Of a stretch of DNA of 64,000 nt, positions 505 through 60,621 are shown one piece after another; positions within the stretch are counted from its first letter, which is position 1, and each line of letters starts with the position of its first letter. The position numbers and the translations under genes were made by a program. The stretch comes from an uncultured bacterium (GTDB lineage: Bacteria; Omnitrophota; Omnitrophia; Omnitrophales; Abzuiibacteriaceae), in the NCBI GenBank assembly GCA_964387845.1, contig CAYLXA010000005.1:140955-204954 (forward strand), read 5' to 3'. The notes under the pieces were generated by a model. That model was given only the letters and a program-made list of their open reading frames with translations. It was not told the DNA's origin and searched no databases.

Positions 505-513
505 CTTAATATT

Positions 514-590
514 CGGGCTTCATGCTGCATGCTACAAGTTACAAGCTGCAGGTTTGAAGCTTGGAGCCTGAAGCCTGTAGCTTTGAAACT
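514..590. repeat. hairpin element, AAGCYT/GAAGC heptamer-armed class
   Basis: gggcttcatgctgcatgctacaag...ttgaagcttggagcctgaagcctgtagc: arms built of about 7-nt tandem units, inverted; between guaB-like and guaA. Confidence 0.7.
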
Positions 591-2147
591 ATGAACCAAG
601 ACGTCTGTTTAATTCTCGATTTTGGCTCGCAATACACCCAATTGATTGCACGCCGCGTCCGCGAGAAAAAAGTTTTTTCGGCCATTCATCCTTACCACAT
701 TCCGTTCAGTAAAATCCTGGAAATCAATCCCAAAGCCATTATCCTCTCCGGTTCGCCGTCCAATGTCTACGCCAAACACGCACCGATTTCGGATAAACGG
801 ATTTTCTCACTCGGTGTTCCGATCCTGGGGATTTGTTACGGCCTGCAGCTCACCGCGCACGTCCTTAAAGGGCGCGTCAAGAAAGTTAAGCACCGCGAAT
901 ATGGTTACGCCGATCTCGTGATCAACAAGCCGGGTGAATTGTTTGCGGGGCTTCCCAAAAAGTTTCACTGCTGGATGAGCCACGGCGATCAAGTCACCAA
1001 ACTTCCGCAAGGATTTGAACGGCTCGCGCACACACGAACTTCAAGTGTCGCGAGTTTTGGAAACACAAAAGCCAAAATTTACGGCGTTCAGTTTCACCCG
1101 GAAGTCGTTCACACGCCGCTCGGCCACAAAATCATCGCGAACTTCCTATTCAAAGTCGCAAAATTCCGCGGCAATTGGTCGCCCAAGTCATTTATTAATG
1201 AAACCATCAAAGATATCCGCCGCAAAGTCGGAAAGGACAAAGTCGTTCTCGGGCTTTCGGGCGGCGTGGATTCATCCGTGGCCGGTGTGTTGATTCACAA
1301 AGCGATCAAGCATCAGCTGACCTGTATTTTCGTGGACAACGGTTTGCTCAGAAGAGGCGAGCGACGGCAAGTCGAAGAAGAATTCCGGAAACATTTTCAT
1401 ATGAACCTGCGTGTGATCGATGCGACGAATGAATTTCTGAATGCGCTGCGCGGCGTGACGGACCCCGAGAAAAAACGCAAAATCATCGGCGGACTCTTCA
1501 TCAAGGTTTTCGAAAGGGAAGCCAAAAAACTCGGTAAAGTGAAGTTTCTGGCGCAAGGCACGCTTTATCCCGATGTGGTGGAATCGGTTTCGGCTCATGG
1601 CGGCCCGACGGCCGTGATCAAATCACATCACAACGTGGGTGGTCTTCCGAAGCGGATGAAATTTCAATTGCTCGAGCCCTTGCGTGATTTATTCAAAGAC
1701 GAAGTCCGCGCGGTCGGCAGAACGCTTGGCATTAAATCGCAGTTTGTGGATCGCCACCCGTTTCCGGGCCCGGGTCTTGCGGTCAGGATTCTAGGCGAAA
1801 TCACGCGCGAGCGGCTTTATTTGGTGCGCGAAGCCAATTGGATCATGCTCGAAGAATTGATGAAGAATAAAGACAAAAACGGCAGATATTACGACCAGGT
1901 TTGGCAGGCCTTTGCAGTTTTGCTGCCGGTTAAAAGTGTCGGCGTTATGGGCGATGAGAGAACGTATCAATACGTGACTTCTTTACGCGCGGTGGTCTCG
2001 GAAGACGGCATGACGGCCGACTGGGCGCGGCTTCCGGATTGGCTCCTCGCCAAGATTTCAAGCCGCATCATAAATGAGGTGAACGGCATCAACCGCGTGT
2101 GCTACGATATCAGCTCGAAGCCGCCCGCTACCATCGAATGGGAATAA
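591..2147 (+). CDS. guaA: GMP synthase (glutamine-hydrolysing)
   Basis: MNQDVCLILDFGSQYTQLIARRVRE class-I glutamine amidotransferase N-term, SGGVDSSV ATP-PPase P-loop, C-terminal dimerisation domain ending ...PATIEWE; ORF track starts at 561 but MNQD at 591 is the conserved start. Confidence 0.92.
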   Translation: MNQDVCLILDFGSQYTQLIARRVREKKVFSAIHPYHIPFSKILEINPKAIILSGSPSNVYAKHAPISDKRIFSLGVPILGICYGLQLTAHVLKGRVKKVKHREYGYADLVINKPGELFAGLPKKFHCWMSHGDQVTKLPQGFERLAHTRTSSVASFGNTKAKIYGVQFHPEVVHTPLGHKIIANFLFKVAKFRGNWSPKSFINETIKDIRRKVGKDKVVLGLSGGVDSSVAGVLIHKAIKHQLTCIFVDNGLLRRGERRQVEEEFRKHFHMNLRVIDATNEFLNALRGVTDPEKKRKIIGGLFIKVFEREAKKLGKVKFLAQGTLYPDVVESVSAHGGPTAVIKSHHNVGGLPKRMKFQLLEPLRDLFKDEVRAVGRTLGIKSQFVDRHPFPGPGLAVRILGEITRERLYLVREANWIMLEELMKNKDKNGRYYDQVWQAFAVLLPVKSVGVMGDERTYQYVTSLRAVVSEDGMTADWARLPDWLLAKISSRIINEVNGINRVCYDISSKPPATIEWE

Positions 2148-2148
2148 A

Positions 2149-2279
2149 GTTTAGCGGTTAGCGAATAGCGTTTAGCGCATAGAAAAACAAACGAGACCAT
2201 TTTTGTGAGAACTCATTTTTATTCTTTTCATTTTGTTTTTTCAGTTATACGCTATCCGCTAGACGCTATACGCTAATAG
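2149..2279. repeat. hairpin element, TAGCG-unit class, with 62-nt AT-rich centre
   Basis: gtttagcggttagcgaatagcgtttagcgcatag ... ttatacgctatccgctagacgctatacgctaatag; begins 2 nt after the guaA stop and ends 2 nt before the dnaE start. Confidence 0.7.
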
Positions 2280-2281
2280 TT

Positions 2282-5200
2282 ATGGATCATCATTCTGATT
2301 TTGTCCATCTGCATTGCCACACGCAGTATTCGCTTTTAGACGCTGCTTCCAAAGTCGAAGAGCTCGTGAAGCGCGCGGCCGACCTCAAATTTCCCGCGCT
2401 TGCGATGACCGATCACGGCAATTTGTTTGGCGCGATCGAATTTTACGAAAAAGCCATGAAGGCGGGCGTCAAACCCATCATCGGCATGGAAGCCTACATC
2501 GCGCCGCGCTCACGCTTCGATAAATCCGCGCACGGCGTCAAAGAAGCATCGTTTCACATCACTCTGCTCGTTAAAAACGAAGTCGGCTACCGCAATCTTC
2601 TCAAATTATCTTCCGCGGCGTACCTCGAAGGTTTTTACTATCGCCCCCGGATCGATAAAGAAATTCTCAAGAAACACTCAGAAGGCCTGATCGCGCTTTC
2701 CGGATGCCTCAAAGGCGAAGTGCCGTACTATTTATGGAATGACCAGCCGCAGGAATCCAAACGCGCCATCAAGGAATTTATCGATATTTTCGGCCGTGAC
2801 GATTTTTACTTGGAATGCATGAATCAGGGCATTGAGCAGCAGCGCCGCGTGGTGAATGAATACCTGAAACTCTCCAAAGAATTCAAGCTCAAGATGGTGG
2901 CGACGAATGATTGCCATTACATTTATCAGAAAGATGCGCAATCGCACGACGCCTTGATTTGTATCGGTACGGGGTCGCTTATTTCCGATGAGGACCGTAT
3001 GCGTTATCACGGCGATAACTTTTATTTGAAATCCGCGGATGAAATGAAGGAGCTCTTCAAAGAGTTGCCGGAAGCTGTTTTGGAAACGCGCGCCATTGCG
3101 GATAAATGTAACTTGGAACTCGATTTCTCAAAAACGCACTTGCCGGCTTTTAAACCACCGGCAGGGCAATCGCAAAAGGAATATTTGCGTTCACTTTGCT
3201 TTAAATTGCTCGCTAACCGGTTTTCCGGCGAAATTCCGAAGCAATACGACGAGCGGCTCCGTTTTGAGCTGGCGCTTATCGAAAAAATGGGGTTCGTCAG
3301 TTACTTTCTCGTCGTGTGGGATTTTATCCGCTTCGCGAAGGAAAAAAAGATTCCGGTCGGGCCGGGACGCGGTTCGGCGGCCGGCAGTTTGGTGGCTTAC
3401 GCACTCGGCATCACGAATTTGGATCCCATCGAACACGGCCTCATTTTTGAACGTTTCCTCAATCCAGAACGTATTTCGATGCCGGATATCGATATCGACT
3501 TTTGTTATGAACGCCGCGACGAAGTGATTGCCTACGTGCGCGAAAAATACGGCGAAGAGAGCGTTGCGCAAATCATCACGTTCGGAACGATGGCGGCACG
3601 CGCCGCACTGCGCGATGTGGGACGTGTGATGGGCCTCAGTTATCAAGATGTCGATAAAATCGCGAAAATGGTGCCGATACAGCTTGATATGACACTCGAA
3701 ACCGCGCTTGAAGTCGAGCCGCGCATGAAGCAGCTTGCCAAATCCGACCCGCAAGTCGGTCAACTTATCGAAACCTCGAAAGCCTTGGAAGGCCTTGCAC
3801 GCCATGCTTCTACGCACGCGGCCGGTGTTGTGATCTCGGAAGGGCCTCTGTCGGATCATTGCCCGCTTTTTAAAGCGGATGATGTGATCACAACGCAATA
3901 CGACATGAAAGCCGTCGAGAAAATCGGCCTTCTCAAAATGGACTTTTTGGGATTGCGCACGCTGACCGTGATTGACGAAGCAGTGCGGCTGATTGAAAAA
4001 ACACGCGGCGTGAAAATCGAAATCGATTCACTCAAGCTCGAAGATAAAGCGACTTATGAATTGCTCGGCCACGGCGAATCCATCGGCGTGTTCCAGCTTG
4101 AAAGTTCGGGCATGCGCGACCTGCTGAAAAAAATGAAACCGAAAGTATTTGGCGACATTGTGGCTTTGCTTGCGCTTTATCGTCCGGGGCCTTTGGGCAG
4201 CGGCATGGTCGATGATTTTATTCAGCGCATGCACAACCCCAAGCTCATCAAGTATGACCACCCGGCCTTGGAGCCCATTTTGCGTGAAACGTACGGCATT
4301 ATTTTGTATCAAGAGCAGGTCATGCAGATTGTGAGCACGCTCGCGGGATTCTCGATGGCAAAAGCCGATTCCTTAAGGCGCGCGATGGGTAAGAAAATCC
4401 CGGAAATCATGGAAAAGGAAAAAGAATCATTCCTGAAAGGCGCCGGCGACAACGGTATTCAGCCGCGCATTGCGGAAAAAATTTGGAACCTGATCGAATA
4501 TTTCTCAGGGTACGGCTTCAATAAATCACATTCGACCGCCTACGCCTACATTTCCTATCAGACAGCTTATTTGAAAGCAAACTATACTGTCGAATTCATG
4601 ACCGCGCTGCTCACGTCGGAAAAAGACAACACGGACAAAATCGTCCGCTACATTGACGAATCCAAGCGGCTCGGCCTTCAGGTGACGCCGCCTTCTATTA
4701 ATGAAAGCTTCTCTGTCTTTACCTGTGTCGGAAATGTGATTTGCTTCGGGCTTTCGGCGGTGAAAAATGTGGGCACGACGGCGGTGGAGTCTATCATCGA
4801 AACCCGCAGCGAGAAGGGGAAGTTCAAGTCGCTTGTCGATTTTGTGGAACGCGTGGATCTGCGCGTCTGCAACCGGAAAGTGCTTGAAAGCTTGATTAAA
4901 TGCGGCGCTTTTGACGGTTTCAAATTAAAACGCTCACAAATGATGGCGATGGTGGACCGTCTTTTGGAAATCGGTGCTAAAACGCAGAAGGACCGGTCAA
5001 AAGGTCAACTCTCACTTCTTGATCAGTTGGATTCAAGCGACGGTTTCAAAGAACATATGCATGACGCGCCCGACATTGAAGAATGGCCGGAAAATGAATT
5101 GCTCGCGCACGAACGTGAAATGCTCGGGTTTTTCGTGAGCACACATCCTTTGGCACGTTTCGAGAATGTGTTGAAAACTTATGCGTCAACGACCACGGCG

Positions 5201-5732: not shown

Positions 5733-5765
5733 CTGGTTTTACCTGTAAAAACCGGCTTTTCTCTC
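5733..5765. terminator. intrinsic terminator after dnaE
   Basis: ctggtttt-acctgta-aaaaccgg hairpin followed by a T-rich run (cttttctctc), 8 nt after the dnaE stop. Confidence 0.6.
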
Positions 5766-11636: not shown

Positions 11637-11666
11637 CTGTAAGTTATTTTAAATAAACAACTTACG
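11637..11666. repeat. short GTAAGT-type hairpin
   Basis: ctGTAAGTTattttaaataaacAACTTACg upstream of rpoD. Confidence 0.4.
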
Positions 11667-14394: not shown

Positions 14395-14652
14395 GTGGAA
14401 AAGAAGAATAGCAAAAAGAAAGCATTGTTGGCGGCGTCCATCGCAGGCTTAATTGCGGTTGCAGGCGCGGTGTTGCCGGCATCAGTTGCTTATGCGGAAG
14501 ATGTAAAATGTTCAGGCGTCAATGCTTGCAAGGGCAATGGCGATTGCGGCGGCGCGGGAAGTTCTTGTGCTGGTTCTAATGCCTGCAAAGGCCAGGGCTG
14601 GATTTCGGTTTCTGAGAAGGCCTGCAAGCAGCTCGGCGGAACAGTGGCTTAA
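14395..14652 (+). CDS. DUF2282-type secreted Cys-rich peptide (bufferin-like RiPP precursor)
   Basis: GTG start 7 nt after AGGAGG; Sec signal MEKKNSKKKALLAASIAGLIAVAGAVLPASVAYA; core KCSGVNACKGNGDCGGAGSSCAGSNACKGQGWISVSEKACKQLGG has 6 Cys in the KC.GV/DC/SCAG/W..V/C..LGG pattern of DUF2282. Confidence 0.7.
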   Translation: MEKKNSKKKALLAASIAGLIAVAGAVLPASVAYAEDVKCSGVNACKGNGDCGGAGSSCAGSNACKGQGWISVSEKACKQLGGTVA

Positions 14653-14708
14653 TAGCTGTGCCTTGAGTTGGTTTGTTGAAATACCGTGAAGCGTGACTGG
14701 AAAATGCA

Positions 14709-16863: not shown

Positions 16864-16888
16864 TCGATTGTAGTTTGTTCACCAAAAA

Positions 16889-16920
16889 GGCCAGCAGCTG
16901 AACACTGCTGGCCTTTTTTT
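16889..16920. terminator. intrinsic terminator
   Basis: ggccagcag-ctgaaca-ctgctggcc then TTTTTTT. Confidence 0.75.
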
Positions 16921-16933
16921 CTCAGGGAAGTTC

Positions 16934-21034: not shown

Positions 21035-22978
21035 ATGTCCATTACGCAATCAACCACGGCCAAACTCCGAATTATTAGTTTCGAAAGCCGTCTGTCCTCA
21101 ACCATGACAGAGCTGATCCACAAAGCCGGCCATGCGCCTATCGCGGCGCCGGCACTGCAGGAAATCCCGCTCGAGAAAAATCCCGAAGCGTTTCAATTAG
21201 GGGAGCGGCTCCTCAATCACGAAATTGATTTCATGATCTTTCTAACGGGTGTCGGCACAAAAGCGCTCTTTGAAACCTTGAGAACCCGTTACAACATGAA
21301 ACAAATCATTGCGGCCTTGAATCAAACCATCATTGTTGCGCGAGGCCCGAAGCCGGTTCAGGTTTTGCAAGATTACGGAATCATGGTTTCGGTCCTGGTG
21401 CCGGAGCCCAATACCTGGCGCGACATTTTGGAAGTTTTAGACTCAGACGAGCATAGCATTTCTCTGATGAAAAGGACTGTCGCGGTCCAAGAATACGGAG
21501 AGGAAAATCCGCAGCTCATCGCCGGATTGGTGGAGCGCGGCGCGCGCGTAATCCGGGTTCCCGTCTACCGGTGGGCGCTGCCGGATGATACCAAGCCGCT
21601 AAAAAATGCGATTCGGACCATCATCGAACACAACGCGGACGCGGTGCTCTTCACAAACTCGGTGCAGGTCAATCATTTATTTCGGCTGGCCTCGGAAATA
21701 GGCCTTGAAAGGCATTTAAAACAGGCCTTTGCCAAAATGGTGATCGCTTCCGTCGGCCCTCATTGTTCTCAAGCGATTGTTGAGCATGGGCTTTCCGTTG
21801 ATATCCAGCCCGAGACGCCGAACATGGAGTCGCTCGTCTTGGAAGTGTCAAAACGCGCGAAGGCCATTTGGGATGAGAAGCAATTACATGAAAGCAAACT
21901 CATGGATTCCGGCATCCGAATGGAATCAGAAAGAGTCCAAAAAAAGGAATTGGTGGAAAGCGTATTTTTAAAAGCGTGCCGGCTTGAAAAAACATCTCAC
22001 ACACCGGTTTGGCTGATGCGCCAAGCAGGGCGCTACATGAAAGAATACCGGCAGCTGCGTGAAAAAATGCCCTTTCTGGAACTTTGCAAAAACCCATCAC
22101 TGTGTGCAGAGGTTACAATTCATGCCCAGGAAACCATCGGAGCGGACGCTGCTATTATTTTTTCGGATATCCTGCTTTTGGTACAGCCGTTTGGCCTGGG
22201 CCTTGAGTATTCGCGGGAAGACGGGCCCGTGATTGACAATGTTATTCACCGCGGATCGCGCATCGATGAACTTCCCGAGATCGAACCGGCCGATTCGCTC
22301 GGATTTGTATATGAAGCGATCCGAAAAACGCGCGAGAATCTGCAGTCCAACATTCCGCTGATCGGGTTTGCCGGAGCACCGTTTACGCTGGCGTCTTACA
22401 TGATTGAAGGCGGCTCATCAAAAGATTTTAGGCGCACAAAGCTATTCATGTATTCCGATGAAGGCCAGTGGCGCGCACTGATGGAAAAATTGGCACGCGC
22501 CGTATCGAAACATCTCAAGGCGCAAATTGAGGCCGGTGCTCAGGCGGTTCAGCTTTTTGACAGCTGGGTCGGTTGTTTAGGCCCCGGCGATTATAAAAAA
22601 TATGTACAGCCGTACTCCAAACAGGTATTTGATTCGCTAGAAGGGCTCGCGCCGACCATTCACTTTGGAACCAACACCGGAAATTTGTTGGAGCTCATGA
22701 AAGAGGCGGGCGGTGATGTAATCGGCGTCGATTTTCGGATCACGTTGGACCAGGCTTGGCGAAGAGTGGGATATTCAAAAGCAGTGCAAGGAAATTTGGA
22801 TCCGCTGGTGCTGCAGTCATCGATTCCTTATATTAATCAGCGTGCACAGGAAATTATCAAGCAGGCCTCCGGACGCCCAGGGCACATTTTCAATTTGGGC
22901 CACGGTGTTTTGCCGGATACGCCTGTTGAAAATGTGATCGCGTTGGTGGATATGGTCCACGAACTCAGTGGTAAGTGA
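21035..22978 (+). CDS. hemE: bifunctional uroporphyrinogen-III synthase (N-term) / uroporphyrinogen decarboxylase (C-term)
   Basis: C-terminal 350 aa: TPVWLMRQAGRYMKEYRQLREK... is the HemE signature; N-terminal 270 aa HemD-like (two-lobed flavodoxin-like; weaker); single ORF of 647 aa. Confidence 0.7.
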   Translation: MSITQSTTAKLRIISFESRLSSTMTELIHKAGHAPIAAPALQEIPLEKNPEAFQLGERLLNHEIDFMIFLTGVGTKALFETLRTRYNMKQIIAALNQTIIVARGPKPVQVLQDYGIMVSVLVPEPNTWRDILEVLDSDEHSISLMKRTVAVQEYGEENPQLIAGLVERGARVIRVPVYRWALPDDTKPLKNAIRTIIEHNADAVLFTNSVQVNHLFRLASEIGLERHLKQAFAKMVIASVGPHCSQAIVEHGLSVDIQPETPNMESLVLEVSKRAKAIWDEKQLHESKLMDSGIRMESERVQKKELVESVFLKACRLEKTSHTPVWLMRQAGRYMKEYRQLREKMPFLELCKNPSLCAEVTIHAQETIGADAAIIFSDILLLVQPFGLGLEYSREDGPVIDNVIHRGSRIDELPEIEPADSLGFVYEAIRKTRENLQSNIPLIGFAGAPFTLASYMIEGGSSKDFRRTKLFMYSDEGQWRALMEKLARAVSKHLKAQIEAGAQAVQLFDSWVGCLGPGDYKKYVQPYSKQVFDSLEGLAPTIHFGTNTGNLLELMKEAGGDVIGVDFRITLDQAWRRVGYSKAVQGNLDPLVLQSSIPYINQRAQEIIKQASGRPGHIFNLGHGVLPDTPVENVIALVDMVHELSGK

Positions 22979-23075
22979 TAAGTGGTAAGTGGTAAGTTTG
23001 GATGAACCAGTCAAACTTGATTAAAATTTTATTTTTACTTATCACTTACAACTTACAACTTACAACTTAAAACTG
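22967..23075. repeat. hairpin element, GTAAGT(G/A) class
   Basis: agtggtaagtgataagtggtaagtggtaag ... cttatcacttacaacttacaacttacaacttaaaactgg; covers the last 4 codons of hemDE and ends 7 nt before hemY. Confidence 0.75.
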
Positions 23076-23081
23076 GAAAAT

Positions 23082-34701: not shown

Positions 34702-34744
34702 CTCTTTTGTGTTATACTCTTTCGGTTCTTTGAGAAAGGCTTTT

Positions 34745-35172
34745 CTCGGTAGATGATCGCCTGCTGCATTTTGCAGTGGGAGGAAAGTCCGAACTTCACA
34801 GGGCAAGGCGCCCCGTAATACGGGGTGGGGCGGGAGCAAATCCCGCTTTAAGGAAAGTGCCACAGAGATTATACATCCGAAGTGGTAAGTGATAAGTGGT
34901 AGGTGGTAAATAGTAAATAAAGGAGTTATTGGCTTCTCATCAACTTAGCACTTACAACTTATCACTTACTACTGGATAAAGGTGAAACGGTGGCGTAAGA
35001 GACCACCGTGTATCGGCGTAAGCTGGTATGCAAGGTAAACCCCGCCTGAAGAAAGATGAAGATCGCGCAAGTTGACTTGTTCAGCTCAGGGCGGCCCGTT
35101 CTGCGCGCGTCTAACAAGATCGAATGACCCGAGGTTGCAAAATCCGGGCTAGACAGATGATCATCGCTTCTT
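34745..35172 (+). ncRNA. rnpB: RNase P RNA (bacterial type A)
   Basis: GGAGGAAAGTCCGAAC...ACAGGGCA (P4 region), AGGAAAGTGCCACAGAG (P10/P11), GGTGAAACGGTGGCGTAAGAGACCACC (P13/P14), CAAGGTAAACCCCGCCTGAAG, ...GGGCTAGACAGATGATCATCGC 3' end; ends approximate. Confidence 0.8.
34881..34973. repeat. GTAAGT-class hairpin embedded in RNase P RNA (forms the P12 helix)
   Basis: agtggtaagtgataagtggtaggtggtaaatagtaaataaagg ... caacttagcacttacaacttatcacttactact, lying between the AGGAAAGTGCCACAGAG and GGTGAAACGGTGGCG conserved blocks. Confidence 0.7.
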
Positions 35173-35173
35173 C

Positions 35174-35258
35174 AGTTGTAAGTGATAAGTGATAAGTGGT
35201 AAGTTGTAAGTTTTAAGAATTCATAAACTTATCACTTAAAACTTACCACTTACAACTG
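35174..35258. repeat. GTAAGT-class hairpin element with CCAGTTGTAAGT...ACTTACAACTGG termini
   Basis: cagttgtaagtgataagtgataagtggtaagttgtaag-ttttaagaattcataa-acttatcacttaaaacttaccacttacaactgg, directly 3' of rnpB. Confidence 0.75.
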
Positions 35259-35305
35259 GGGAAGAAACAGAATTCGGCTTATGCCGAGAAAAGCCTCTCT
35301 TTTTT

Positions 35306-35390
35306 AGTTTTAAGTGATAAGCGTTAAGGGATAAGTTAAAAACTGCATATTTTTGTTTTTCTTACCTCTTACAACTTATCACTTACCACC
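35306..35390. repeat. GTAAGT-class hairpin element (degenerate)
   Basis: agttttaagtgataagcgttaagggataagtt ... cttacctcttacaacttatcacttaccacc. Confidence 0.6.
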
Positions 35391-35435
35391 GAATCCACTT
35401 AATTTCCTCTGCATAGTTATCAGATTATCCTCCTT

Positions 35436-36122: not shown

Positions 36123-36224
36123 AGCAAGCGTCAAGCCACCGGCTACAGGCCTCAAGCTTAAAAGGCTGAAGCTTAGGGCTTATAGCTTGAAGCCTGCAGC
36201 CTGCGGCTAGTAGCTTGACTACAG
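36123..36224. repeat. AAGCYT-class hairpin element
   Basis: agcaagcgtcaagccaccggctacaggcctcaagctta-aaaggc-tgaagcttagggcttatagcttgaagcctgcagcctgcggctagtagcttgact; begins at the PIN toxin stop. Confidence 0.65.
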
Positions 36225-37038: not shown

Positions 37039-37067
37039 TTGACATTCGGATCCGTCTCGTGTAATAT
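37039..37067 (+). promoter_or_regulatory. pyr operon promoter TTGACA-17-TAATAT
   Basis: TTGACA 37039-37044, 17-nt spacer, TAATAT 37062-37067. Confidence 0.5.
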
Positions 37068-37084
37068 TCCATAACTTTAGCGCA
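37055..37084 (+). terminator. attenuator terminator in the pyr leader (PyrR-type attenuation)
   Basis: CCCGTC-tagaatccaca-GGCGGG then TTTTTTT, 210 nt upstream of pyrR; preceded by the stem-loop cugg-UUCUGCGAAA-ccag GAAAGG. Confidence 0.5.
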
Positions 37085-37204
37085 ATTGAAACCCTTTTAA
37101 TCTGGTTCTGCGAAACCAGGAAAGGCACGAAAATGAAAACCGACTCTTACTGTACCCGTCTAGAATCCACAGGCGGGTTTTTTTATGCCTCTTCCCGAAT
37201 AACG

Positions 37205-37280
37205 AGCCACAAGCTTCAGGCTGCAAGCTCCAAGCTTAAGGCTTTAAGCATGAAGCCTGGGGCCTGCAGCTTGAAGCCGC
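37205..37280. repeat. AAGCYT-class hairpin element inside the pyr leader
   Basis: gccacaagcttcaggctgcaagctccaagcttaaggctttaagcatgaagcctggggcctgcagcttgaagccgc, between the attenuator terminator and the pyrR start. Confidence 0.65.
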
Positions 37281-40070: not shown

Positions 40071-40152
40071 TTAGCGTATAGCGTTCAGCGGATAGCGTAT
40101 AGGAAAGACTATTCAATTTGTTCCTACCCGCTATACGCTAAACGCTATCCGC
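40071..40152. repeat. TAGCG-unit-class hairpin element between pyrC and carA
   Basis: ttttagcgtatagcgttcagcggatagcgtatag-gaaagactattcaatttgttcc-tacccgctatacgctaaacgctatccgcc. Confidence 0.7.
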
Positions 40153-40168
40153 CGACCGGAGATTGTTC

Positions 40169-41296: not shown

Positions 41297-41300
41297 ATTT

Positions 41301-41380
41301 GGTATCTAGTATCTGGTATCTAGTATCTCGCTAAAGAATTTTCGCTTGCCAGATATTAGATACGAGATACCAGATACGCG
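41301..41380. repeat. GGTATCT-unit-class hairpin element between carA and carB
   Basis: ggtatctagtatctggtatctagtatctcg-ctaaagaattttcgcttgcc-agatattagatacgagataccagatacgcg. Confidence 0.7.
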
Positions 41381-41393
41381 AAAGATTAGAAGT

Positions 41394-45461: not shown

Positions 45462-45520
45462 TGCTACAAGCTGCAAGCCGCAGGCTTCATGCCTGGAGCT
45501 TGAAGCCTGTAGCCTGAAGC
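45462..45520. repeat. AAGCYT-class hairpin element between pyrK and pyrD
   Basis: ctgctacaagctgcaagccgcaggcttcatgcctggagcttgaagcctgtagcctgaagc. Confidence 0.65.
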
Positions 45521-53300: not shown

Positions 53301-56300
53301 GAACGTTACCAAATTATGGACCGGGGCGATCACAAGGAATTAGAAAAGCAAATTCTTGAGAAATACGAAATGCTTGCCGCGATTCACTATTTTTCGAAAC
53401 CAAAAATTGCATTGATCGACGGATTTGCAGTAGGCGGCGGGCTTGCAGCTGCGTTCGGCAGTCATTATGTTTTGGCGACGGAGAAGGCAAAATTCGGAAC
53501 ACCCGAAACCAAAACCGTGGGTTCCTATATGGATGGCGCCAACGCGGCATTCATGGCAGACCGGTTTGGATTAGATTATGTAGCGAATGAATTATTTATC
53601 ACAGGTCGGCATGAGGAAGCCAGTGCCCTCATTGATCAATTCGATCATCAGGTTCCGCAGTTAGGCGACATGTATGCGGCTTATTATGGTTATACCGGTT
53701 CGCCCATTCCTTTGGACGAAGCAATATATTACGGGCTCGTCCATTCAACCATACAAGATGCTAAAGCTACAGAAGAAACGCTCAAAGAGTTGGTGAGCTC
53801 TCAACCAAATCTTTCTCCCGGCGAACTCTTAAACAAAGTTAATGACACATTTCCGCGTTCTCAATTGACGGAAACAGAACGCCAAGCCGTCAAAAAGCGC
53901 CGTGATTTGATGGCGAAATACTTTCAAGTGGAAGAAGCGCGTTTCAGTGGCGTGATTAATTTTATGATCGACCGGCTTTCGAACGAAACCTTGAGGAGCA
54001 AAATGGATCCGGACGAGCTTCAGTTCGTGATCGATACACTTACCAAAATCTCAAAAAATTCGCCATTTGGTGTTCTTGCGACCTCGCATATGATTCGCGA
54101 TCACGCGTTTCTCCATGGCCATTTCATACCGGTCAGTCTCAGCCAAATTTACGAACAAGCGTTTGCCCGTACTTTAGAAAGAATGAAAACGTCCGAATTG
54201 GTGAATGGAAAGTTTCCGTTCGTGCGAATGGGTATGTTGTTGCGATCCACGCACGACTCGGTCTTGCTGCGAGGCGTTTTTATTCGCGAAATCGACACCA
54301 CGCTCAAAGTATTCGGAATTGATGAGGAATTTAGAAATTCGCTTGCCCGGGCTGATGTGTTAGAAGGGCTCCGTTCGTTTTTGGAACGCCGAAAACCTGA
54401 CTGGCCTTCAAAGCAGCATGATGGTGATTTATCAAAATTATGGGGCCGGATCGAAGAAACTTTGAAAAAAGTCGAGGGCCATCGTTCCGAACTTAGGCGT
54501 GAAGCAATTATTGATGACGCTCTTGGCGGCGCTTTTGGCGGTAGAGAAGGTATTGGTAAACTAATCCAGCGATGGCAAATAGAGAAAGCGTTATTAGTAT
54601 TTCCATTTTATTTGGCCTCCTTGGCCCGCTCTTGGTTAGGAAATAAAGCAATTGCAGTTACAATGAGCAGCCCCATCGTCGCAACCAAGCCTATTTTCCA
54701 GGTGAACGAAAAATCACTAAATAACCGAGTTGCCAATCCTGCTGTTCCGATATATTGGGCAAACGTCATGCTGGATCTTGCCATGAATTCTGTTTTTTCC
54801 AGGCTTGCTTTCTTCATTACAGTAACATACTCCTCTCCTCATGTAAATCTTGGCTTTTTGAGCCGGCAGCACCCTATCATAAATATTATATTAAGTCAAT
54901 ATTTATTTTATTTATATAAAATATTTGAAAGGAGCCAGCAGGACCAAAAAAAGGCCGAATACGAAGCCGCCGGACAAGTCAACCGTTCCGGACTGCGTGT
55001 GCCCGATTGGCTGCTTTATTTTGGTTTTGGGATTTTGGCCGTACTGGTTGTGGGAATCGCTTCTTTATTTTATTACACCATCCGGCATCCGGATGGTGAC
55101 TCAAACGAATCCAGCTCCCCGGAAACATCGGGCTCTGCCCAGGATCAAAATGATCATTTGGGCCCACCGAGGTCTGAGTTAAGAAAGTTTGATGAATCAA
55201 ACAATGCGCCAAGGTCGCGCATCCGGTGGATTTTGAATTCGATTTGGAATGCGCAAGGCGGAAATTTAGACCGTGAAGTATGGCAGCCCAGCCTGGCGCA
55301 TGCCCGCCGTTTGATCAAACGTTTCCGCCGCGTTCCCGGCATGGGCGAGATCATTTTAGAACTGGGCAAAAATTTCAGGAACCACAAAGCTTTTGATGCA
55401 GTCCTCGCCGAATTATTTGCGGCCGAGTATTTGGAGAAACACGTGCCGGGTTCTAAAGTGATTGGCTTAAGGATGAAAGCCCGGCATGGTGAAATCGATA
55501 TTGTGCTGCGCATCGGCCCAGTTACTTCCCAAGGAAAGCCAAAGGCCGGCGCCGTCAAGCTTGCGCCGGGCATTTACCTGGCCGAAGTCAAATACGGCTA
55601 TGGCAATGATCCTCAATTGGTCCAGTGGAAACAGGCGAAACTGAAAACTCAGTTGAAAAGTTATTCGAGCGTCGCTTCGATCCTTACGCAGGCAGGCCTT
55701 GACGTTCAGGGCCTAATCCTGGTGAGCGCGGAAAGCCCGGCTTATGTTGCGAGCAATCTCCGCCGCCGTGCGTATTGGCGCGCTTCCAATGTTTCAAAGG
55801 GTTTCAGTCTTAAAAATCTTTTGATCGCCTTTGACCCTTTGAGTTATCCGGACAAGCGGCAAATTGTTCCTCCTCAAAATATTGACGTCAGGCGCTGGGC
55901 ATCGGTCACTTCAACACCTGCTGCTGTTTTTAAAAAGCCGATTCCCGAATCCGCAAATCTTGCTTTGAGCCGGCCGTTGAGGCCAAGAAAAAAGACAGCG
56001 CCTGATGCCGGCGATCCAAACCGCTCGGCGCGATTACCCAGAAATTTTCTGGAAACCGTTGCGCAATTAAAAGAAGCTTTGAACGATCATGGATTGAAAA
56101 AAGAGGCAATCGAAGCCGTGTTGTCTTCACTTGCCAGCCAGGCACATGGTTTTAAAATCGAAGGCTTAGCGCTGAAAGAAAATGACGGCCTTCATTATGT
56201 ACGCGGCCTCAGAGAGGAAATTCGAAGCGGTAATCCGTTCTGGATGGTCCGGCTTCACCGTGCAAACAGAGAAAAATTTGAATCCACACTTATCGCGCGC

Positions 56301-57515
56301 TGGAAAATTCCGGACGAAGCGGTGCAGGATTGGAAAGCCGCCAACCGTTCGGAGCTTAGAACCGATTTGAGAATTGTGCGCTTGCTTGATGAGAGAAACG
56401 ACAAGCTGGTGCCGGCGGCGATCTTATACATGGATTTATTTTTAACTTTCAGGGAACATGGCGCCGAACTTCAGAATTTAACGAGCCATGATTTGTTTGG
56501 AATTACGCCCCATCGGCATCCCGAAGAGGGAATGGCTTATAAAATTATGTTTACGTTACCCAATCAACTTCCGAAGGCCGTCCTTGAAATCGTATCGGAT
56601 GACAAAGGAGAAAAATATAACGCGCAAGACTCCGATTATCCCGTCTTCTTTAAATTTGATTCCAACATGAACTTGATTGCGGTCTATATTACGCTAGATT
56701 CGGAAAAGCCCGAGTATCTTGAGCTCGAAATCCTGCAGCGCGCCGAAAAGGGGACCTTGAAGCCGTACTTTATTAATGAAGAAATCGGTATCCAATACCG
56801 TTCCGGCAATTTGATTCTTCTTCCTCAACCCAAAAGCTTCCGGCTTTCCGCACCGAACCTGGTTTTGCGCGCAAGTCGAACAACCGAGATAAGGTCAGAA
56901 CTGCGATTGGTGCGGCAAGCCGCAAGCTCCAAGCCGCAGGCTCAAGAGTTCGAAATGCTTGATATGCAGGATTCAAAAGCACCGGAAGTCAAGAGTGAAC
57001 TGCGGAAAATTGCGGAGCAAATGAATTTGATCGTGCCGAAGCCGACGGCCGAAATGGACGCCGCGTTTCAAAAATTTGCCGGAATTGAATCTTCGGATCA
57101 AGCCGCACAAACGCAGATTCTTGGAATCTTGCCGAATTTGGGACGTTCGGAGCTTCGCAGCGCCATTATCCAAAGCCAAAGCCGGCAGCGCAAAATCATT
57201 GTCTTTGTGGGTACAAAAAGCGAAAAGCAAATGGTCGAAGACTTTGTTTCCAGTCAAAAGATTCCGGCCGGACGGGTTGTGGTTACGCAAGTTGTTGATC
57301 CGAACATCATCTTCGGAGATCAAAAGCGGGCGGAGCTGCGTTTAGTCGGGTTCGCCGGTGATGAGCCGTATGCATTTCAGGTAACGCGGCTCTTGCGTGG
57401 TTATGATGTTAAAACGCGGATCGGCACCGAGCAAATGTTCGCGAGTATTTTCCAGATTACAGATACTCTGCGTTCCGAACTTCGTCAGCGCATGGCGGCT
57501 TTGATTGCAGCGTAA
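47349..57515 (+). CDS. giant (3388 aa) secreted/membrane modular protein with 14 recurrent RSELR-like pentapeptides; includes nucleotidyltransferase-like, crotonase-like and PD-(D/E)xK nuclease-like modules
   Basis: Uninterrupted 10167-nt frame; GTG start with N-terminal signal-peptide-like MRPYSFFLRAISALLIFTFSFTETIARA; at least 5 TM-rich blocks; LYGSYIYGSIDEPRDLDLIAVV (NTase GS...DxD); VATVIFNDLPNRNAMNGEMFEAV...IDGFAVGGGLAAAFGSHYVLATEKAKFGTPETK (crotonase fold); GEIDIVLRIG...IYLAEVKYG (D...ExK); codon usage like neighbours. Confidence 0.85.
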   Translation: MRPYSFFLRAISALLIFTFSFTETIARADAAQTSSQLAAMLEQSSNRMGLMAETISSFTRNSYLAIEKFANSVDVRSELRSRGLELSGGHKPIPQSDTKEVNNNDKSEAGHEQSEKEIQSYAKKLKESKGDLKIIREAIVNFHRLGYSEVKVAEMINQVNQNQPYAQIQYWSDEVTQSTLIKRFSQHRKLIKSLLWLLLPVVCYFLPYPGATALLLLIYHDAMHRYQAGFYFLTYFLGDFWNNRMEDIQNFLVKKYHEPDFNFEGDLWLNPVDRAHDQLFEAKRQFWKSVLESMSGVYMVSSILVFPWLFSALRMLISAPMVLVQTGVFSFLGAISIGFFGLVPLRGPHFQVTAADLGLEHAVDVERTSVTGLRWPQFSNKQNAMIEAARFYWNRNPMVLYVEKNRESKFEWNRQIRRDTASRLLARHFLTVVLFVTTALSTILLIAISIILGSGVIGAVEFVIQKFGQSFITNVLLIVGSCCFFPLVAVIIISAIVVGSEQSIAGAWQKARADIKSLKKNVFLNPNQSDEKFWKNLIKQLKRISKEEAPFSDISFPESIERLIRDLSSLKEDHSELIPLHEALATGKEGTEYQIKGQAALTSDRHSDDPSTKVRAELRTTNERLIWKAIAQFGIPEFYQEQAYLFLSGLLEINQSQWGTPFEDAISRLSQVQVEQIKSSISFEPIVMSTTSLVRRTVRFSVYMAGVIVLAYAAGAALARDINLFKLFSQIGKQKLPGPEQIDIGFAAIFLFTMFIGLPFVITRFQRWLDAKIKPYPISYDLRRTILNELFVKQGLMSTDDAEELTRRKYRSELRTEWADQIKSLLLKDFPFLELDFSENGYLFRAIRSGLRDGLSRGSFSYLNDGGVAAGWQEKHLVYFVSEDPNDALDVAEFQNGFPDNAVVIFPSKLFHDEMNAGRAAIMTTHGLSGTLTGIKWPLMTNPVTIQDSAFIIVTPETKQYLDNLLVNGQASGEEEKLRLRLLEYQKQGIYQKIVALNFEPKGMAADAIQEKFKAFLLSKSIQPAQAIDSEIYPNLAEIQSDGVNKRRSELRSREFVKFSELGSAIADYIDLFRKRNGRFSPSVLRAVADLDFGTERQFVNVASVPLRNGFVPDPQAFGRAVVEGIVRELPFEVRPIEKFSFAYKKHAFRIRMETGNQQTQNKEAHSELRARKVRNDTSETKLHPRADRFHSLRSLKRFFLGLLIIGLAASMFIWTHDHDRLSLDPSFIKVAVHSGILAIVSTYIFWWMKRYLTTGFLLREKIYKLSRSSPTYEFEFGNVRNKLLILETPDGGKHQLYLDANRNIRIMSFRESGQGLVKFLLPYALSIRPDKQLLIYKNNIALQVIGPQKIRIKLLSRSSTVPIIRESRLNKIQRIMIMHPIIIGVALGYVMMLHRFMYLFAHAFASQIIGGHVNCIQCIEEFEFVVNTWTDYLLYGIPIGYPVASVILKLIFFGYKKYMRASRAFIAPTQELPDKPVLFDETFAKNSGQQFVLSVRPFKERQVGRVIRKLKTIRESGLQVSDQTIQNLYRLVRTVQSDPFEGPDIEFELMHWLETSADLKAIAAIVTGWFQIRGDHTTKINRILEQRFKLNKKQIEKLKYLSESYSIPLEETAIDPPSSMEPIPYTDQLKDRTIYQIFGQEFMDEALERIDSIDANKLKDWVQTVFNKNFSSDSKVPIRSIFLYGSYIYGSIDEPRDLDLIAVVEGDSLEKPIPDERTIPKNVFRSMRGRSVNSANIYFLTRKQLQTSKRAIHAASVGILLKAKNLYDEPLNSIRNSDQKQLFYAASELSDAFDFIKKAGKVNKMIDSARIFNWKGFRRLMEVVLYINAIDLSLSIPISEIVTMNNRMEDYIVNKTKGRKITEGLKRLYRMVRTAVLLTRVSLVWRQMEEWGGGEHAKQAQRSELRRKIETGTDKLLAEVDRGVATVIFNDLPNRNAMNGEMFEAVPRVLFKLDNDPDVKLLVLRGAEDPKTHEHHLAGGNIEERYQIMDRGDHKELEKQILEKYEMLAAIHYFSKPKIALIDGFAVGGGLAAAFGSHYVLATEKAKFGTPETKTVGSYMDGANAAFMADRFGLDYVANELFITGRHEEASALIDQFDHQVPQLGDMYAAYYGYTGSPIPLDEAIYYGLVHSTIQDAKATEETLKELVSSQPNLSPGELLNKVNDTFPRSQLTETERQAVKKRRDLMAKYFQVEEARFSGVINFMIDRLSNETLRSKMDPDELQFVIDTLTKISKNSPFGVLATSHMIRDHAFLHGHFIPVSLSQIYEQAFARTLERMKTSELVNGKFPFVRMGMLLRSTHDSVLLRGVFIREIDTTLKVFGIDEEFRNSLARADVLEGLRSFLERRKPDWPSKQHDGDLSKLWGRIEETLKKVEGHRSELRREAIIDDALGGAFGGREGIGKLIQRWQIEKALLVFPFYLASLARSWLGNKAIAVTMSSPIVATKPIFQVNEKSLNNRVANPAVPIYWANVMLDLAMNSVFSRLAFFITVTYSSPHVNLGFLSRQHPIINIILSQYLFYLYKIFERSQQDQKKAEYEAAGQVNRSGLRVPDWLLYFGFGILAVLVVGIASLFYYTIRHPDGDSNESSSPETSGSAQDQNDHLGPPRSELRKFDESNNAPRSRIRWILNSIWNAQGGNLDREVWQPSLAHARRLIKRFRRVPGMGEIILELGKNFRNHKAFDAVLAELFAAEYLEKHVPGSKVIGLRMKARHGEIDIVLRIGPVTSQGKPKAGAVKLAPGIYLAEVKYGYGNDPQLVQWKQAKLKTQLKSYSSVASILTQAGLDVQGLILVSAESPAYVASNLRRRAYWRASNVSKGFSLKNLLIAFDPLSYPDKRQIVPPQNIDVRRWASVTSTPAAVFKKPIPESANLALSRPLRPRKKTAPDAGDPNRSARLPRNFLETVAQLKEALNDHGLKKEAIEAVLSSLASQAHGFKIEGLALKENDGLHYVRGLREEIRSGNPFWMVRLHRANREKFESTLIARWKIPDEAVQDWKAANRSELRTDLRIVRLLDERNDKLVPAAILYMDLFLTFREHGAELQNLTSHDLFGITPHRHPEEGMAYKIMFTLPNQLPKAVLEIVSDDKGEKYNAQDSDYPVFFKFDSNMNLIAVYITLDSEKPEYLELEILQRAEKGTLKPYFINEEIGIQYRSGNLILLPQPKSFRLSAPNLVLRASRTTEIRSELRLVRQAASSKPQAQEFEMLDMQDSKAPEVKSELRKIAEQMNLIVPKPTAEMDAAFQKFAGIESSDQAAQTQILGILPNLGRSELRSAIIQSQSRQRKIIVFVGTKSEKQMVEDFVSSQKIPAGRVVVTQVVDPNIIFGDQKRAELRLVGFAGDEPYAFQVTRLLRGYDVKTRIGTEQMFASIFQITDTLRSELRQRMAALIAA
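54608..54817 (-). CDS. possible small membrane protein encoded antisense inside the giant gene (speculative)
   Basis: 69 aa MKKASLEK...IGLVATMGLLIVTAIALF (one TM helix); GGAGAGGAG SD about 10 nt upstream; AT-rich promoter-like stretch 54840-54930 upstream on that strand. Confidence 0.2.
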   Translation of the reverse strand: MKKASLEKTEFMARSSMTFAQYIGTAGLATRLFSDFSFTWKIGLVATMGLLIVTAIALFPNQERAKEAK

Positions 57516-57598
57516 CCAGTTGTAAGTTGTAAGTGATAAGTGTTAAGTGATTGAAAAAATTAATGCATACCACTTACAACTTACCACTTATCACTTAA
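57516..57598. repeat. GTAAGT-class hairpin element directly after the giant gene stop
   Basis: ccagttgtaagttgtaagtgataagtgttaagtgattg-aaaaaattaatgcat-accacttacaacttaccacttatcacttaat. Confidence 0.75.
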
Positions 57599-57643
57599 TA
57601 CTTTTCCTGCTATAATTCCCACTTCTTATTTCAAGGAGAAAGC

Positions 57644-59099: not shown

Positions 59100-59297
59100 A
59101 TGGAGCATGTTTCACTCGAAGGCATTATGAAGAAAACCAACTGCCGTTACGGGCTTGTTTTGGCTGCTGCGGCGCGTGCCAACGAACTGCTGACGGGCGA
59201 CCAGCCGCTGATCGATGCCGGCATTAAAAAGGCGACCAGTGTTGCGATTGAAGAAATCGCGCAAGGCAAGGTCGAGTTCAAGCTAGGCCCGGCGTAA
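59100..59297 (+). CDS. rpoZ: RNA polymerase omega subunit
   Basis: NCRYGLVLAAAARANELL: conserved omega helix; 65 aa. Confidence 0.8.
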   Translation: MEHVSLEGIMKKTNCRYGLVLAAAARANELLTGDQPLIDAGIKKATSVAIEEIAQGKVEFKLGPA

Positions 59298-59303
59298 TAT
59301 TCT

Positions 59304-59873
59304 ATGAAAAAGAGCGGCCAATCCCTGAAAGGGAAAACCATTTTGCTGGGCTTGAGCGGAAGCATCGCGCTTTACCGTTCCTGTGATCTGGTTCGCGAGC
59401 TCAAGTCACAGGGCGCCGATGTGATCTGTATCATGACAAAATCGGCTCAGCAATTTGTGACGCCTCTTACTTTCCAGGCTTTAAGCGGCCGCAAAGTTTA
59501 CACCGACCCTTTTTCCGGTGAAGAAGATTACGCGGTTCTGCACACAACACTCGCCGACAAAGCCGATTTGATTTTGATTTGTCCGGCCTCTGCGAACATT
59601 ATCGCGCGCCTCGCGGCCGGCATGGCGGATGACATGGTGACTTCGGTCGTGCTGGCGAGCAAGGCAAAAATTCTTGTGGCGCCTGCCATGAACGACAACA
59701 TGTTCGCCAACAAAATCACGCAGGATAATATCCAAAAATTGAAGAAAATCGGTTATCAATTTGTCGAACCCACCGAAGGCGACCTGGTCTGCGGCCGCGT
59801 TGGTATGGGCCATATCGCGGAACAGGGTACGATCCTCGAATACGTTCAAAAAGTAGTAAGTGGTAAGTTTTAA
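59304..59873 (+). CDS. coaC: phosphopantothenoylcysteine decarboxylase (flavoprotein; CoaC half of CoaBC)
   Basis: KGKTILLGLSGSIALYRSCDLVRELKSQGADV...PAMNDNM; the last 6 codons (VVSGKF) and the stop lie inside the GTAAGT-type hairpin element. Confidence 0.85.
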   Translation: MKKSGQSLKGKTILLGLSGSIALYRSCDLVRELKSQGADVICIMTKSAQQFVTPLTFQALSGRKVYTDPFSGEEDYAVLHTTLADKADLILICPASANIIARLAAGMADDMVTSVVLASKAKILVAPAMNDNMFANKITQDNIQKLKKIGYQFVEPTEGDLVCGRVGMGHIAEQGTILEYVQKVVSGKF

Positions 59874-59973
59874 GTGGTAAGTCAAAAATAATGAATAATG
59901 CAAATTCCTTCCTTTTCTTAATTCTTTTGCTTATCACTTACCACTTACCACTTACCACTTATCACTTACAACT
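59853..59973. repeat. GTAAGT-class hairpin element separating coaC and coaB
   Basis: gtagtaagtggtaagttttaagtggtaagtc-(58-nt AT-rich loop)-cttatcacttaccacttaccacttaccacttatcacttacaactg; contains the coaC stop. Confidence 0.75.
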
Positions 59974-59979
59974 GTACTC

Positions 59980-60621
59980 ATGAAACCCCACCTTCTCGTC
60001 ACGGCCGGCCCGACGCGCGAAATGCTGGATCCCGTTCGCTTTTTGTCGAACGTATCAACCGGCGTGATGGGCTATGAAATTGCAAAAGCCGCAAAAAGAA
60101 AAGGTTTCCGCGTGACATTGATCAGCGGGCCCGTCAGTTTAAAAGCACCACATGGTGTCCGGCTCGTTTCCGTGATTTCTGCTCAGGATATGGAAAGGGA
60201 AGTGAAAAAATATTTCCGATCTGCGCAAGCGCTCATCATGACTGCCGCCGTTTGCGATTATACGCCGGCAAAACACCAGAAGCACAAAATCAAGCGGATT
60301 CATACACATCGGATGGTGTTCAAGCAGACGAAAGACATTCTGCAAGCCGTTTCTAAAATGAAAAGGAGGCAGTATGTTGTCGGCTTCTGCCTCGAAACCG
60401 AGGATTTGCGTAAGAACGCAATCCGCAAACTCCGGTCTAAAAAACTGGATTTGATTGTTGCGAATTCCTATACACGGTCGCAGAACCCGTTTGGCAGAAA
60501 TAAAACCTCTGTTCTTTTAATTGATAAAGATTTAAGCGAGAAGAGAGTTTCCAATATCAGCAAACCGCGCTTTGCGGCGAGGCTCGTTGCTTGTGTCCGG
60601 AATCAGCTTAAAAAGAGTTGA
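59980..60621 (+). CDS. coaB: phosphopantothenate-cysteine ligase (CoaB half of CoaBC)
   Basis: LLVTAGPTREMLDPVRFLSNVSTGVMGYEIAKAAKRKG...: ATP-grasp-like CoaB; start is 7 nt after the end of the hairpin element. Confidence 0.85.
   Translation: MKPHLLVTAGPTREMLDPVRFLSNVSTGVMGYEIAKAAKRKGFRVTLISGPVSLKAPHGVRLVSVISAQDMEREVKKYFRSAQALIMTAAVCDYTPAKHQKHKIKRIHTHRMVFKQTKDILQAVSKMKRRQYVVGFCLETEDLRKNAIRKLRSKKLDLIVANSYTRSQNPFGRNKTSVLLIDKDLSEKRVSNISKPRFAARLVACVRNQLKKS

Follow-up and report, generated by a model that had tools for sequence, protein, structure and literature searches.

How does a bacterial genome come to carry hairpins that share one build in several sequences, placed between its genes and even inside one of them? 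The question is raised by a 64,000-nt stretch of a Candidatus Omnitrophota genome (contig CAYLXA010000005.1, positions 140,955 to 204,954; hereafter the window), for which an earlier note had listed 14 hairpin elements with arms of short tandem repeats. Thirteen of these are true inverted pairs of tandem heptamer arrays at the places listed, and they fall into four unit classes with the same paired-array build, as the note had proposed; the remaining one, 11637-11666, has a single unit per arm. We read the elements as heptanucleotide foldback repeats of the STRR type known from cyanobacteria. To the full account, in which the arrays would have originated by slippage from small seeds, spread by copying between sites and come to act as REP-like barriers in RNA, we give a probability of roughly one half. 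The data examined are the 64 kb of the window plus short contigs from relatives, which are referred to by L numbers.

A detector set to accept 15 or more of 21 matches at lag 7, with low-complexity sequence filtered out, found 22 period-7 arrays in the window; 50 dinucleotide-preserving shuffles gave 0.6 on average and 3 at most. Twenty of the 22 stand in inverted-pair configuration; separated inverted pairs number 10, merged short-loop hairpins come in addition, and the shuffles contain none. The same detector returned 0 to 9 arrays in the window for each of the other periods from 4 to 12. Tandem Repeats Finder (TRF) assigned period 7 to every arm, and the arms were also recovered by an inverted-repeat finder; the unit length, first put at 6-8 nt, is always 7. 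By the shuffle control the arrays are longer than chance, which makes them LSSR as PMC4679880 quotes the definition of Mrazek 2007 (tandem arrays of 1-11-nt units longer than chance). The predicted RNA folding energies of the elements, -24 to -49 kcal/mol, show that the arms are complementary when folded; a value near zero would have spoken against this. Elements 57516 and 59853 are not assembly artefacts, because they are identical in an independent assembly from another sequencing run (Logan assembly L335, 100% identity over 8261 nt including both). A second independent run (Logan assembly L081) is 100% identical to the window over 1639 nt, in a stretch without elements. The 13 elements and the single-unit hairpin are as follows.

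514..590: GCYNCAR foldback that fills the guaB/guaA spacer (stop at 504, ATG at 591)
2149..2279: TAGCGNN foldback in the guaA/dnaE spacer, with 4 units per arm and a loop of ~60 nt
11637..11666: simple hairpin with one GTAAGTT/AACTTAC unit in each arm, which the array detector did not pick up; possibly a seed or a remnant
22965..23078: TAAGTNN foldback between hemDE and PPO, whose left arm provides the last hemDE codons and the TGA stop
34879..34975, plus strand: TAAGTNN foldback inserted at the tip of RNase P helix P12
35172..35260, plus strand: TAAGTNN foldback between the 3' strands of P2 and P4, at the position of the optional helix P19 of RNase P RNA
35304..35392: degenerate TAAGTNN foldback that begins ~8 nt past the rnpB 3' end and precedes the promoter of a toxin-antitoxin pair
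36123..36224: GCYNCAR foldback that begins directly behind the stop codon of the PIN toxin
37205..37280: GCYNCAR foldback of the pyr leader, downstream of the attenuator's U-tract terminator and ahead of the pyrR Shine-Dalgarno sequence and ATG
40071..40154: TAGCGNN foldback after the pyrC stop, followed by a new GGAG Shine-Dalgarno sequence and a new ATG of carA
41299..41382: GTATCTN foldback at carA/carB, behind the carA stop and ahead of the carB start
45462..45520: GCYNCAR foldback that fills the pyrK/pyrD spacer
57516..57600: TAAGTNN foldback that starts at the stop codon of a 3388-aa open reading frame (ORF), upstream of the yicC promoter
59851..59975: TAAGTNN foldback between coaC and coaB, whose left arm encodes the coaC C-terminus and the TAA stop

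Each element is a pair of inverted arrays with 3-6 heptamers per array. When the arms are put in phase, every class shows about five conserved and two variable positions per heptamer:

TAAGT[G/T][G/A/T] (TAAGTNN): 56 units counted, 6 elements
TAGCG-N-W (TAGCGNN): 16 units counted, 2 elements
GC[T/C]-N-CA-[A/G] (GCYNCAR): 38 units counted, 4 elements
GTATCT-N (GTATCTN): 6 units counted, 1 element

Of three TAGCG-class copies reported before, two were found (2149 and 40071). The loop length first given for all elements, 10-60 nt, fails for the GCYNCAR class, in which the arms abut with loops of ~3-7 nt. Within one class the loops of different copies are unrelated, the order of the variable positions differs, and there is no conserved internal sequence. 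The sole recurring end is CAGT...ACTG, with CAGT at the end of 8 of the 12 TAAGT-class arms. We considered whether the two arms are inverted duplicates of each other, and rejected this: the left arm matches the reverse complement of the right no better in register than when shifted by 7 or 14 nt. Since the arms are not mirror copies, they pair through their 5-nt cores, and the stems carry periodic mismatches. No GGG tract occurs in any of the four unit classes, so they lack the mark of G-quadruplex-forming sequence. Because 7 is not a multiple of 3, a unit bearing TAA, TAG or TGA shuts all three frames within three units. One further period-7 array, at 56911-56942 in a poorly conserved segment of the 3388-aa ORF, stands alone without a partner arm; a relation to the foldback elements is improbable.

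The proteins CarA, PyrB and GuaA assign the window to Candidatus Omnitrophota. The flanking genes confirmed by Pfam are guaB-guaA-dnaE, a hemD-hemE fusion, pyrR-B-C-carA-carB-pyrK-D-F and yicC-gmk-rpoZ-coaC-coaB. Arrays occupy 11 of ~30 gaps of at least 50 nt, far from nearly every gap larger than 50 nt as had been supposed; the three placements claimed inside the pyr operon (pyrC/carA, carA/carB and pyrK/pyrD) are all real. In 8 of the 10 elements that adjoin protein genes, the left arm starts between -22 and +9 nt from the last base of the upstream stop, and in the same eight the right arm ends at most 15 nt from the next start. A Shine-Dalgarno sequence is missing from six of the eight downstream genes, which is typical for coupled internal genes. 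As the earlier note had observed, stop codons lie in or beside elements: the C-termini ..SGK* of hemDE and ..SGKF* of coaC are encoded by the left arms, and the homology to relatives ends at the preceding Ser codon. The idea that the coaC/coaB element had split a fused coaBC gene was ruled out; the split is ancestral, because the Omnitrophota homologues are all DFP-only proteins of ~215 aa.

Two of the 13 are not intergenic at all. Rfam places 34881-34973 and 35174-35258 inside the RNase P RNA gene, which is the following feature:

34741..35296, plus strand: RNase P RNA gene (bacterial class A), Rfam RF00010, 183.6 bits, E=1e-57

The match covers model positions 1-367 at 183.6 bits against a threshold of 100. 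The score is below the 203-233 bits of relatives because of the two ~90-nt insertions. In the Rfam alignment the element at 34879-34975 falls in the P12 loop. In cyanobacteria, STRR reportedly extend helix P12 of RNase P RNA, and the window element likewise lies within this helix. rnpB, which has lptF/G on one side and the toxin-antitoxin module on the other, has orthologues in L082, L083, L086 and L087. L083, L086 and L087 have a short, normal P12 and no P19. All three hairpins associated with rnpB are present in L082, and all three are absent from L083 and L086. The P12 insertion of L082 has TAAGGGN units instead of TAAGTNN; between the two genomes there are seven compensatory pair changes in P12, with TAAGTG replaced by TAAGGG on one arm and the complementary replacement on the other. 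The folding energy is preserved, at -42.3 in the window and -45.4 kcal/mol in L082 for P12, and at -48.7 and -48.0 kcal/mol for P19.

Comparison of orthologous gaps, which had been suggested as a check, revealed insertion differences at most sites and retention at some. In relatives with 82-98% identical proteins, most elements are absent. L090, whose GuaA is 98% identical, has no element between guaB and guaA, only a 10-nt spacer, and keeps the guaA/dnaE element with the same length and unit number. In L082 (PyrB 91% identical) the pyr-leader site is empty, pyrC and carA overlap (ATGGTAA), and carA and carB overlap as well, at TAATG with no spacer; in the window ~100 nt stand exactly between TAA and ATG at both of these junctions. 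The outgroups L083 and L088 have overlapping or adjacent genes at the pyr junctions and no arrays, and the insertions there are therefore derived. About 20 kb of syntenic DNA from L083, L086 and L088 contains no arrays except one hairpin of an unrelated class: in L088 a GAGTTTC-class hairpin lies between yicC and gmk, genes that overlap in the window. At coaC/coaB, the heptamer hairpin of L333 and L334 (85-86% identical) belongs to another class, ACAGANN. Between groES and groEL, L091 has a hairpin of the TTCTAAA class. The organism of L091 and L333 has ordinary GC-rich, REP-like hairpins at guaB/guaA and after the giant ORF. These filled, empty and replaced junctions indicate that hairpins turn over at cistron boundaries and that the family that fills a boundary differs by lineage. 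The elements of the window are thus recent, lineage-specific gains, polymorphic by site.

The REP-like hairpins of these related Omnitrophota are perfect GC-rich palindromes, at L091 9956-9990, L091 11545-11660 and L333 7465-7540; examples are CGTAGAGGCGTAT..ATACGCCTCTACA and GTCATTCCCGC..GCGGGAATGAC, at junctions that hold heptamer foldbacks in the window.

Once inserted, the elements change slowly. The guaA/dnaE element differs from that of L090 at 9 of 134 positions (0.067), compared with 0.215, 0.216 and 0.396 at the 4-fold sites of guaA, guaB and dnaE. Against L082, the divergence is 0.24-0.34 in arms, 0.44-0.70 in loops, 0.11-0.18 in the rnpB core and 0.52-0.62 at 4-fold sites, and the arms thus evolve 2-3 times more slowly than synonymous sites. 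This slow divergence, together with the compensatory changes and the preserved energy, argues that the arms are kept up by selection for closure or concerted evolution, or the two together. Along 591-5725, aligned with L090 4801-9935, synonymous divergence is ~0.22 in guaB/guaA and 0.40 in dnaE, which suggests a mosaic recombination history across the guaB-guaA-dnaE segment.

How might such elements arise and persist? In the account that we favor, new copies would arise or insert without target-site duplication. None of the 13 elements has a flanking direct repeat above chance, and at carA/carB at most 1 nt is duplicated. A small palindromic seed would probably grow in 7-nt steps by slipped-strand mispairing, and dispersed copies of one class would be homogenized or spread by copying or gene conversion. 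Copies would survive only where a self-contained transcript hairpin is harmless: immediately behind a stop codon, in the gap between two cistrons, or at the tip of P12 or P19, which are peripheral helices of RNase P RNA. A self-folding insert would avoid exposing unstructured untranslated RNA. Purifying selection with compensatory or concerted change would keep the hairpin closed, since a half-decayed insert would do more harm. In mRNA, the imperfect hairpins of 20-45 bp without a U-tract may form REP-like barriers to exonucleases or to terminating ribosomes. At pyrC/carA, an upstream ribosome-binding region resembling the spacer after the element was considered; the similarity is not significant.

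Several observations weigh against this account. The 13 elements use only four classes, so that slippage alone is insufficient and a step of copying and spreading is required. The number of units is unchanged between the window and L090, L082 and L335; the arrays are therefore not visibly hypervariable, unlike the usual slippage-prone repeats. The slower-than-neutral evolution extends to the guaA/dnaE loop, and a selected function would explain it no less well than mere tolerance. Finally, the intergenic copies fold equally well on both strands (mean sense minus antisense folding energy -0.2 kcal/mol, p=0.95), which gives no positive sign of selection at the RNA level outside rnpB. Only the two rnpB copies are clearly more stable on the sense strand. 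G-U pairs outnumber A-C mismatches 33 to 19, a comparison confounded by GC skew and by the way folds are counted.

Might the elements instead be non-autonomous mobile elements in the REPIN or MITE sense, whole foldbacks copied in trans by a single-strand transposase of the HUH/RAYT kind, with a cognate enzyme for each unit class and the heptamer arrays as its recognition repeats? A few classes common to many sites, insertion placed precisely between TAA and ATG, presence or absence among 91-98% identical relatives, the recurring CAGT...ACTG termini and the REP-like hairpins at the same sites in relatives would all suit such an origin. The lack of target-site duplication matches insertion of the HUH/RAYT type, and in Geobacter insertion sequence (IS) elements stand at a fixed distance from analogous arrays (PMC2700814). 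However, no transposase, RAYT or reverse transcriptase is encoded in the window, and the fetched flanks hold no transposase or RAYT. The differing loops and order of variable positions show that copies within a class are not simple duplicates of a master, and the recurrence of the 7-nt period with unrelated cores in many phyla favors a generic process over sequence-specific enzymes; we regard mobility of this kind as unlikely. The placement of the elements raises a different possibility, that they are primarily selected RNA elements which punctuate operons, by protecting the 3' end of the upstream cistron, by serving as processing sites, or by coupling or insulating translation through sequestration of the start until a ribosome melts the stem. 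E. coli REPs near stop codons do influence mRNA stability and translation. The tight fit of 8 of 10 elements between stop and start, the missing Shine-Dalgarno sequences, the slow arms, and the persistence of a hairpin at coaC/coaB and guaB/guaA in relatives with its sequence class replaced are all consistent with such a role. The related option in the earlier note, hairpins for RNA processing or stability, draws indirect support from the location beside stop codons and from the slower-than-neutral change. This reading is nevertheless doubtful: the same elements lie inside RNase P RNA, where an operon function is impossible, and the orthologous junctions of close relatives work without an element, even with overlapping genes. 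Moreover, the intergenic copies show no sense-strand bias in stability, and the G-U excess is weak.

Equal stability on both strands would also be expected if the arrays acted as DNA, as binding sites for a multimeric regulator or a nucleoid protein; short phased motifs with conserved cores and variable spacers fit this, and the paired inverted layout matches the Geobacter metallireducens arrays interpreted as 'global regulator binding sites' (PMC2700814). Four unrelated cores in 64 kb, and yet others in relatives, would each need a protein of their own, the sites lie inside a structural RNA gene and between coupled genes instead of at promoters, and a 7-bp period is out of phase with the DNA helix. 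We therefore consider DNA binding very unlikely. Least credible of all are intrinsic terminators or attenuators. The hairpins are stable and stand after stop codons, and three of them (35304-35392, 36123-36224 and 57516-57600) lie at likely ends of transcription units, but no U-tract follows any stem and no element was flagged in a terminator scan of the window (32 sites against 30 expected, uninformative overall). Canonical terminators with a GC-rich stem and a U-tract are used elsewhere, at 16864-16933, ~61210-61250, ~5733-5760 and the pyr attenuator, and several elements sit within one pathway operon and two within rnpB. The earlier judgment that these are not simple terminators is borne out. 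In the pyr leader itself (~37039-37190), a TTGACA-17-TAATAT promoter is combined with a conserved stem (AATCTGGTTCTGCGAAACCAGGAAAGG) and a U-tract terminator of canonical form; the leader is conserved in L082, looks like a PyrR-type attenuator and matched no Rfam family at threshold.

Bacterial heptanucleotide repeats were first described in 1990, and their statistical excess was noted in 2007; their origin and function are not understood. Our preferred reading, that of STRR-type foldbacks, places the window elements among them. Like cyanobacterial STRR, they have a 7-nt unit, several classes per genome and dispersed noncoding copies; STRR are found in heterocyst-forming cyanobacteria with units CCCCAGT, TTGGTCA and CAACAGT, whereas here the host is Candidatus Omnitrophota, the units are others, 20 of 22 arrays are inverted-paired, and RNase P RNA has a second insertion at the P19 position. 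STRR copies inside the cyanobacterial RNase P RNA gene are the subject of Vioque 1997, to judge by its title (B108 in PMC2858038). The hypothesis that heptamers grow by slipped-strand mispairing is attributed to Mrazek 2007 by PMC4692102 and PMC4679880. The (GGGANTN)n repeats of Xanthomonas and GGGGAYT of Nostoc are heterogeneous intergenic heptamers in which five positions are conserved and two vary (Rehm et al. 2015, PMC4692102). Xanthomonas has 70-75 convergent inverted pairs able to form stem-loops; position and type are largely conserved between related species, sequence and length vary, and most copies are transcribed (PMC4692102). The window arrays likewise have heterogeneous units in convergent inverted pairs, but the Xanthomonas and Nostoc heptamers are G-rich and G-quadruplex-forming with one class dominant, and those of the window belong to four classes that are not G-rich and are almost all paired. 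In Geobacter metallireducens, classes 1-4 are multicopy paired sites in which 3-5 tandem units of 7-9 nt, some of their positions degenerate, lie on opposite strands a variable distance apart (Aklujkar et al. 2009, PMC2700814). Several multicopy classes per genome and paired opposite-strand arrays are common to both; the Geobacter units are of 5, 7, 8 and 9 nt, they were read as regulator binding sites, and insertion into an RNA gene was not reported (PMC2700814). In Beggiatoaceae, TAACTGA arrays abut start codons in the spacers of compact operons and are patchy across phyla (MacGregor 2015, PMC4679880); they differ in comprising 169 direct sets and one inverted, all of a single unit sequence (PMC4679880).

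REP sequences are the best functional analogy, as the earlier note had offered among its options. Like REPs and REPINs, the elements are extragenic palindromes of ~60-130 nt, lie within operons and often just after stops, come in several classes per genome, vary in presence among relatives and lack target-site duplications; they differ in that heptamer arrays make up their arms, in place of a 20-40-nt REP unit with its conserved head motif, and in that the 64 kb searched contains no RAYT. The two other families that had been proposed do not fit: a MITE family is contradicted by the absent target-site duplication, the unrelated loops of same-class copies and the lack of conserved internal sequence, and the modular structure of BOX elements was not seen. 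Eukaryotic foldback (FB) transposons also have long inverted arms of short tandem subrepeats around a variable loop. The likeness is one of resemblance only, since those are eukaryotic, kilobase-scale, transposase-associated and flanked by target-site duplications.

Arrays with other heptamer cores, some of them clear hairpins, were met incidentally in CarA loci of Omnitrophota, Nitrospirota, Chloroflexota, Verrucomicrobiota and Acidobacteriota. Four phased TAAGTNN units, searched for as an exact pattern, matched at least 120 metagenome contigs and at least 120 IMG/VR contigs. Among the matches listed, many contigs also carry further heptamer classes and hairpins, and 25-27% of their arrays are in hairpin form, against 20 of 22 in the window. 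Other heptamer arrays are enriched 4-5 fold in these TAAGT contigs, again among the matches listed, and a propensity of certain genomes for heptamers was considered and rejected: the enrichment is not heptamer-specific, because period-8 and period-9 arrays are enriched likewise. In L126, an unrelated metagenome contig, inverted ACTTAAT and TAAGTAT arrays ~450 nt apart (124-624) surround a whole small gene, apparently for a response-regulator receiver domain; inverted heptamer arrays can thus bracket coding DNA. The core GAGTTTC/GAAACTC occurs both in an Omnitrophota metagenome-assembled genome (MAG; L088 10405-10493) and in a Chloroflexota MAG (L025 5310-5352 and 10483-10569), which could reflect coincidence, a shared sequence preference or horizontal spread.

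The Omnitrophota foldbacks join the known and mechanistically unexplained heptamer repeats of cyanobacteria, Xanthomonas and Geobacter. We found no literature report of such repeats in Omnitrophota. New here are the near-exclusive foldback form, the fact that RNase P RNA has received two insertions (P12 and P19), and sites that are filled in one genome and empty in a very close relative. A bolder reading, which we think rather improbable, is that dedicated machinery that has escaped description, perhaps a nuclease, polymerase or HUH enzyme that is directed to hairpins and works in 7-nt steps, builds and maintains inverted heptamer arrays, and that the hairpins are a general 'operon punctuation'. 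Such machinery would be scattered over Omnitrophota, Chloroflexota, Nitrospirota, Verrucomicrobiota, Acidobacteriota, cyanobacteria, Xanthomonas and Geobacter. If true, it would explain both the bacterial excess of heptamers and the closed, slower-than-neutral arrays. The lineage offers a clean natural experiment, with four classes side by side and filled and empty orthologous sites at 91-98% identity; overlapping genes have been pushed apart and a ribozyme of known structure has been hit twice, which makes it testable, on already available genomes and metatranscriptomes, whether the elements arise by slippage or transposition and whether they are tolerated or selected. In practical terms, the hairpins can mislead gene callers at C-termini and starts, lower the covariance-model score of rnpB and may break short-read assemblies.

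Other features of the window are of separate interest. The segment between rnpB and the pyr operon holds a ribbon-helix-helix (RHH) antitoxin and PIN toxin pair (35497-36122) together with orf193 (36406-36987), and a promoter-like site TTGACA-16-TATTAT lies at 35434-35461; the block of toxin-antitoxin pair and orf193 was recently gained or lost, since it is absent at this position in L082. The giant ORF at 47349-57515 (3388 aa) has a conserved C-terminal region and a homologue in L333. A strongly structured segment of ~220 nt at 30094-30314 (-92.9 kcal/mol) is 91% identical over 75 nt to L082 10695-10769, at the end of the L082 contig and in a different genomic location; it is a second dispersed repeat or noncoding RNA family, unrelated to the heptamer elements. 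Just before it, 28000-30100 is a low-GC island (0.39 against ~0.48) with an unannotated 284-aa ORF and an HNH endonuclease, and may be foreign DNA. In 62000-64000 the GC content rises to 0.54, with no convincing long ORFs and no Rfam family at threshold. At 14395-16427, an 85-aa ORF with a weak DUF7640 match is followed by an enzyme of the MbnB/TglH/ChrH family fused to DUF2063, a candidate pair of precursor and modification enzyme for a ribosomally synthesized and post-translationally modified peptide (RiPP).

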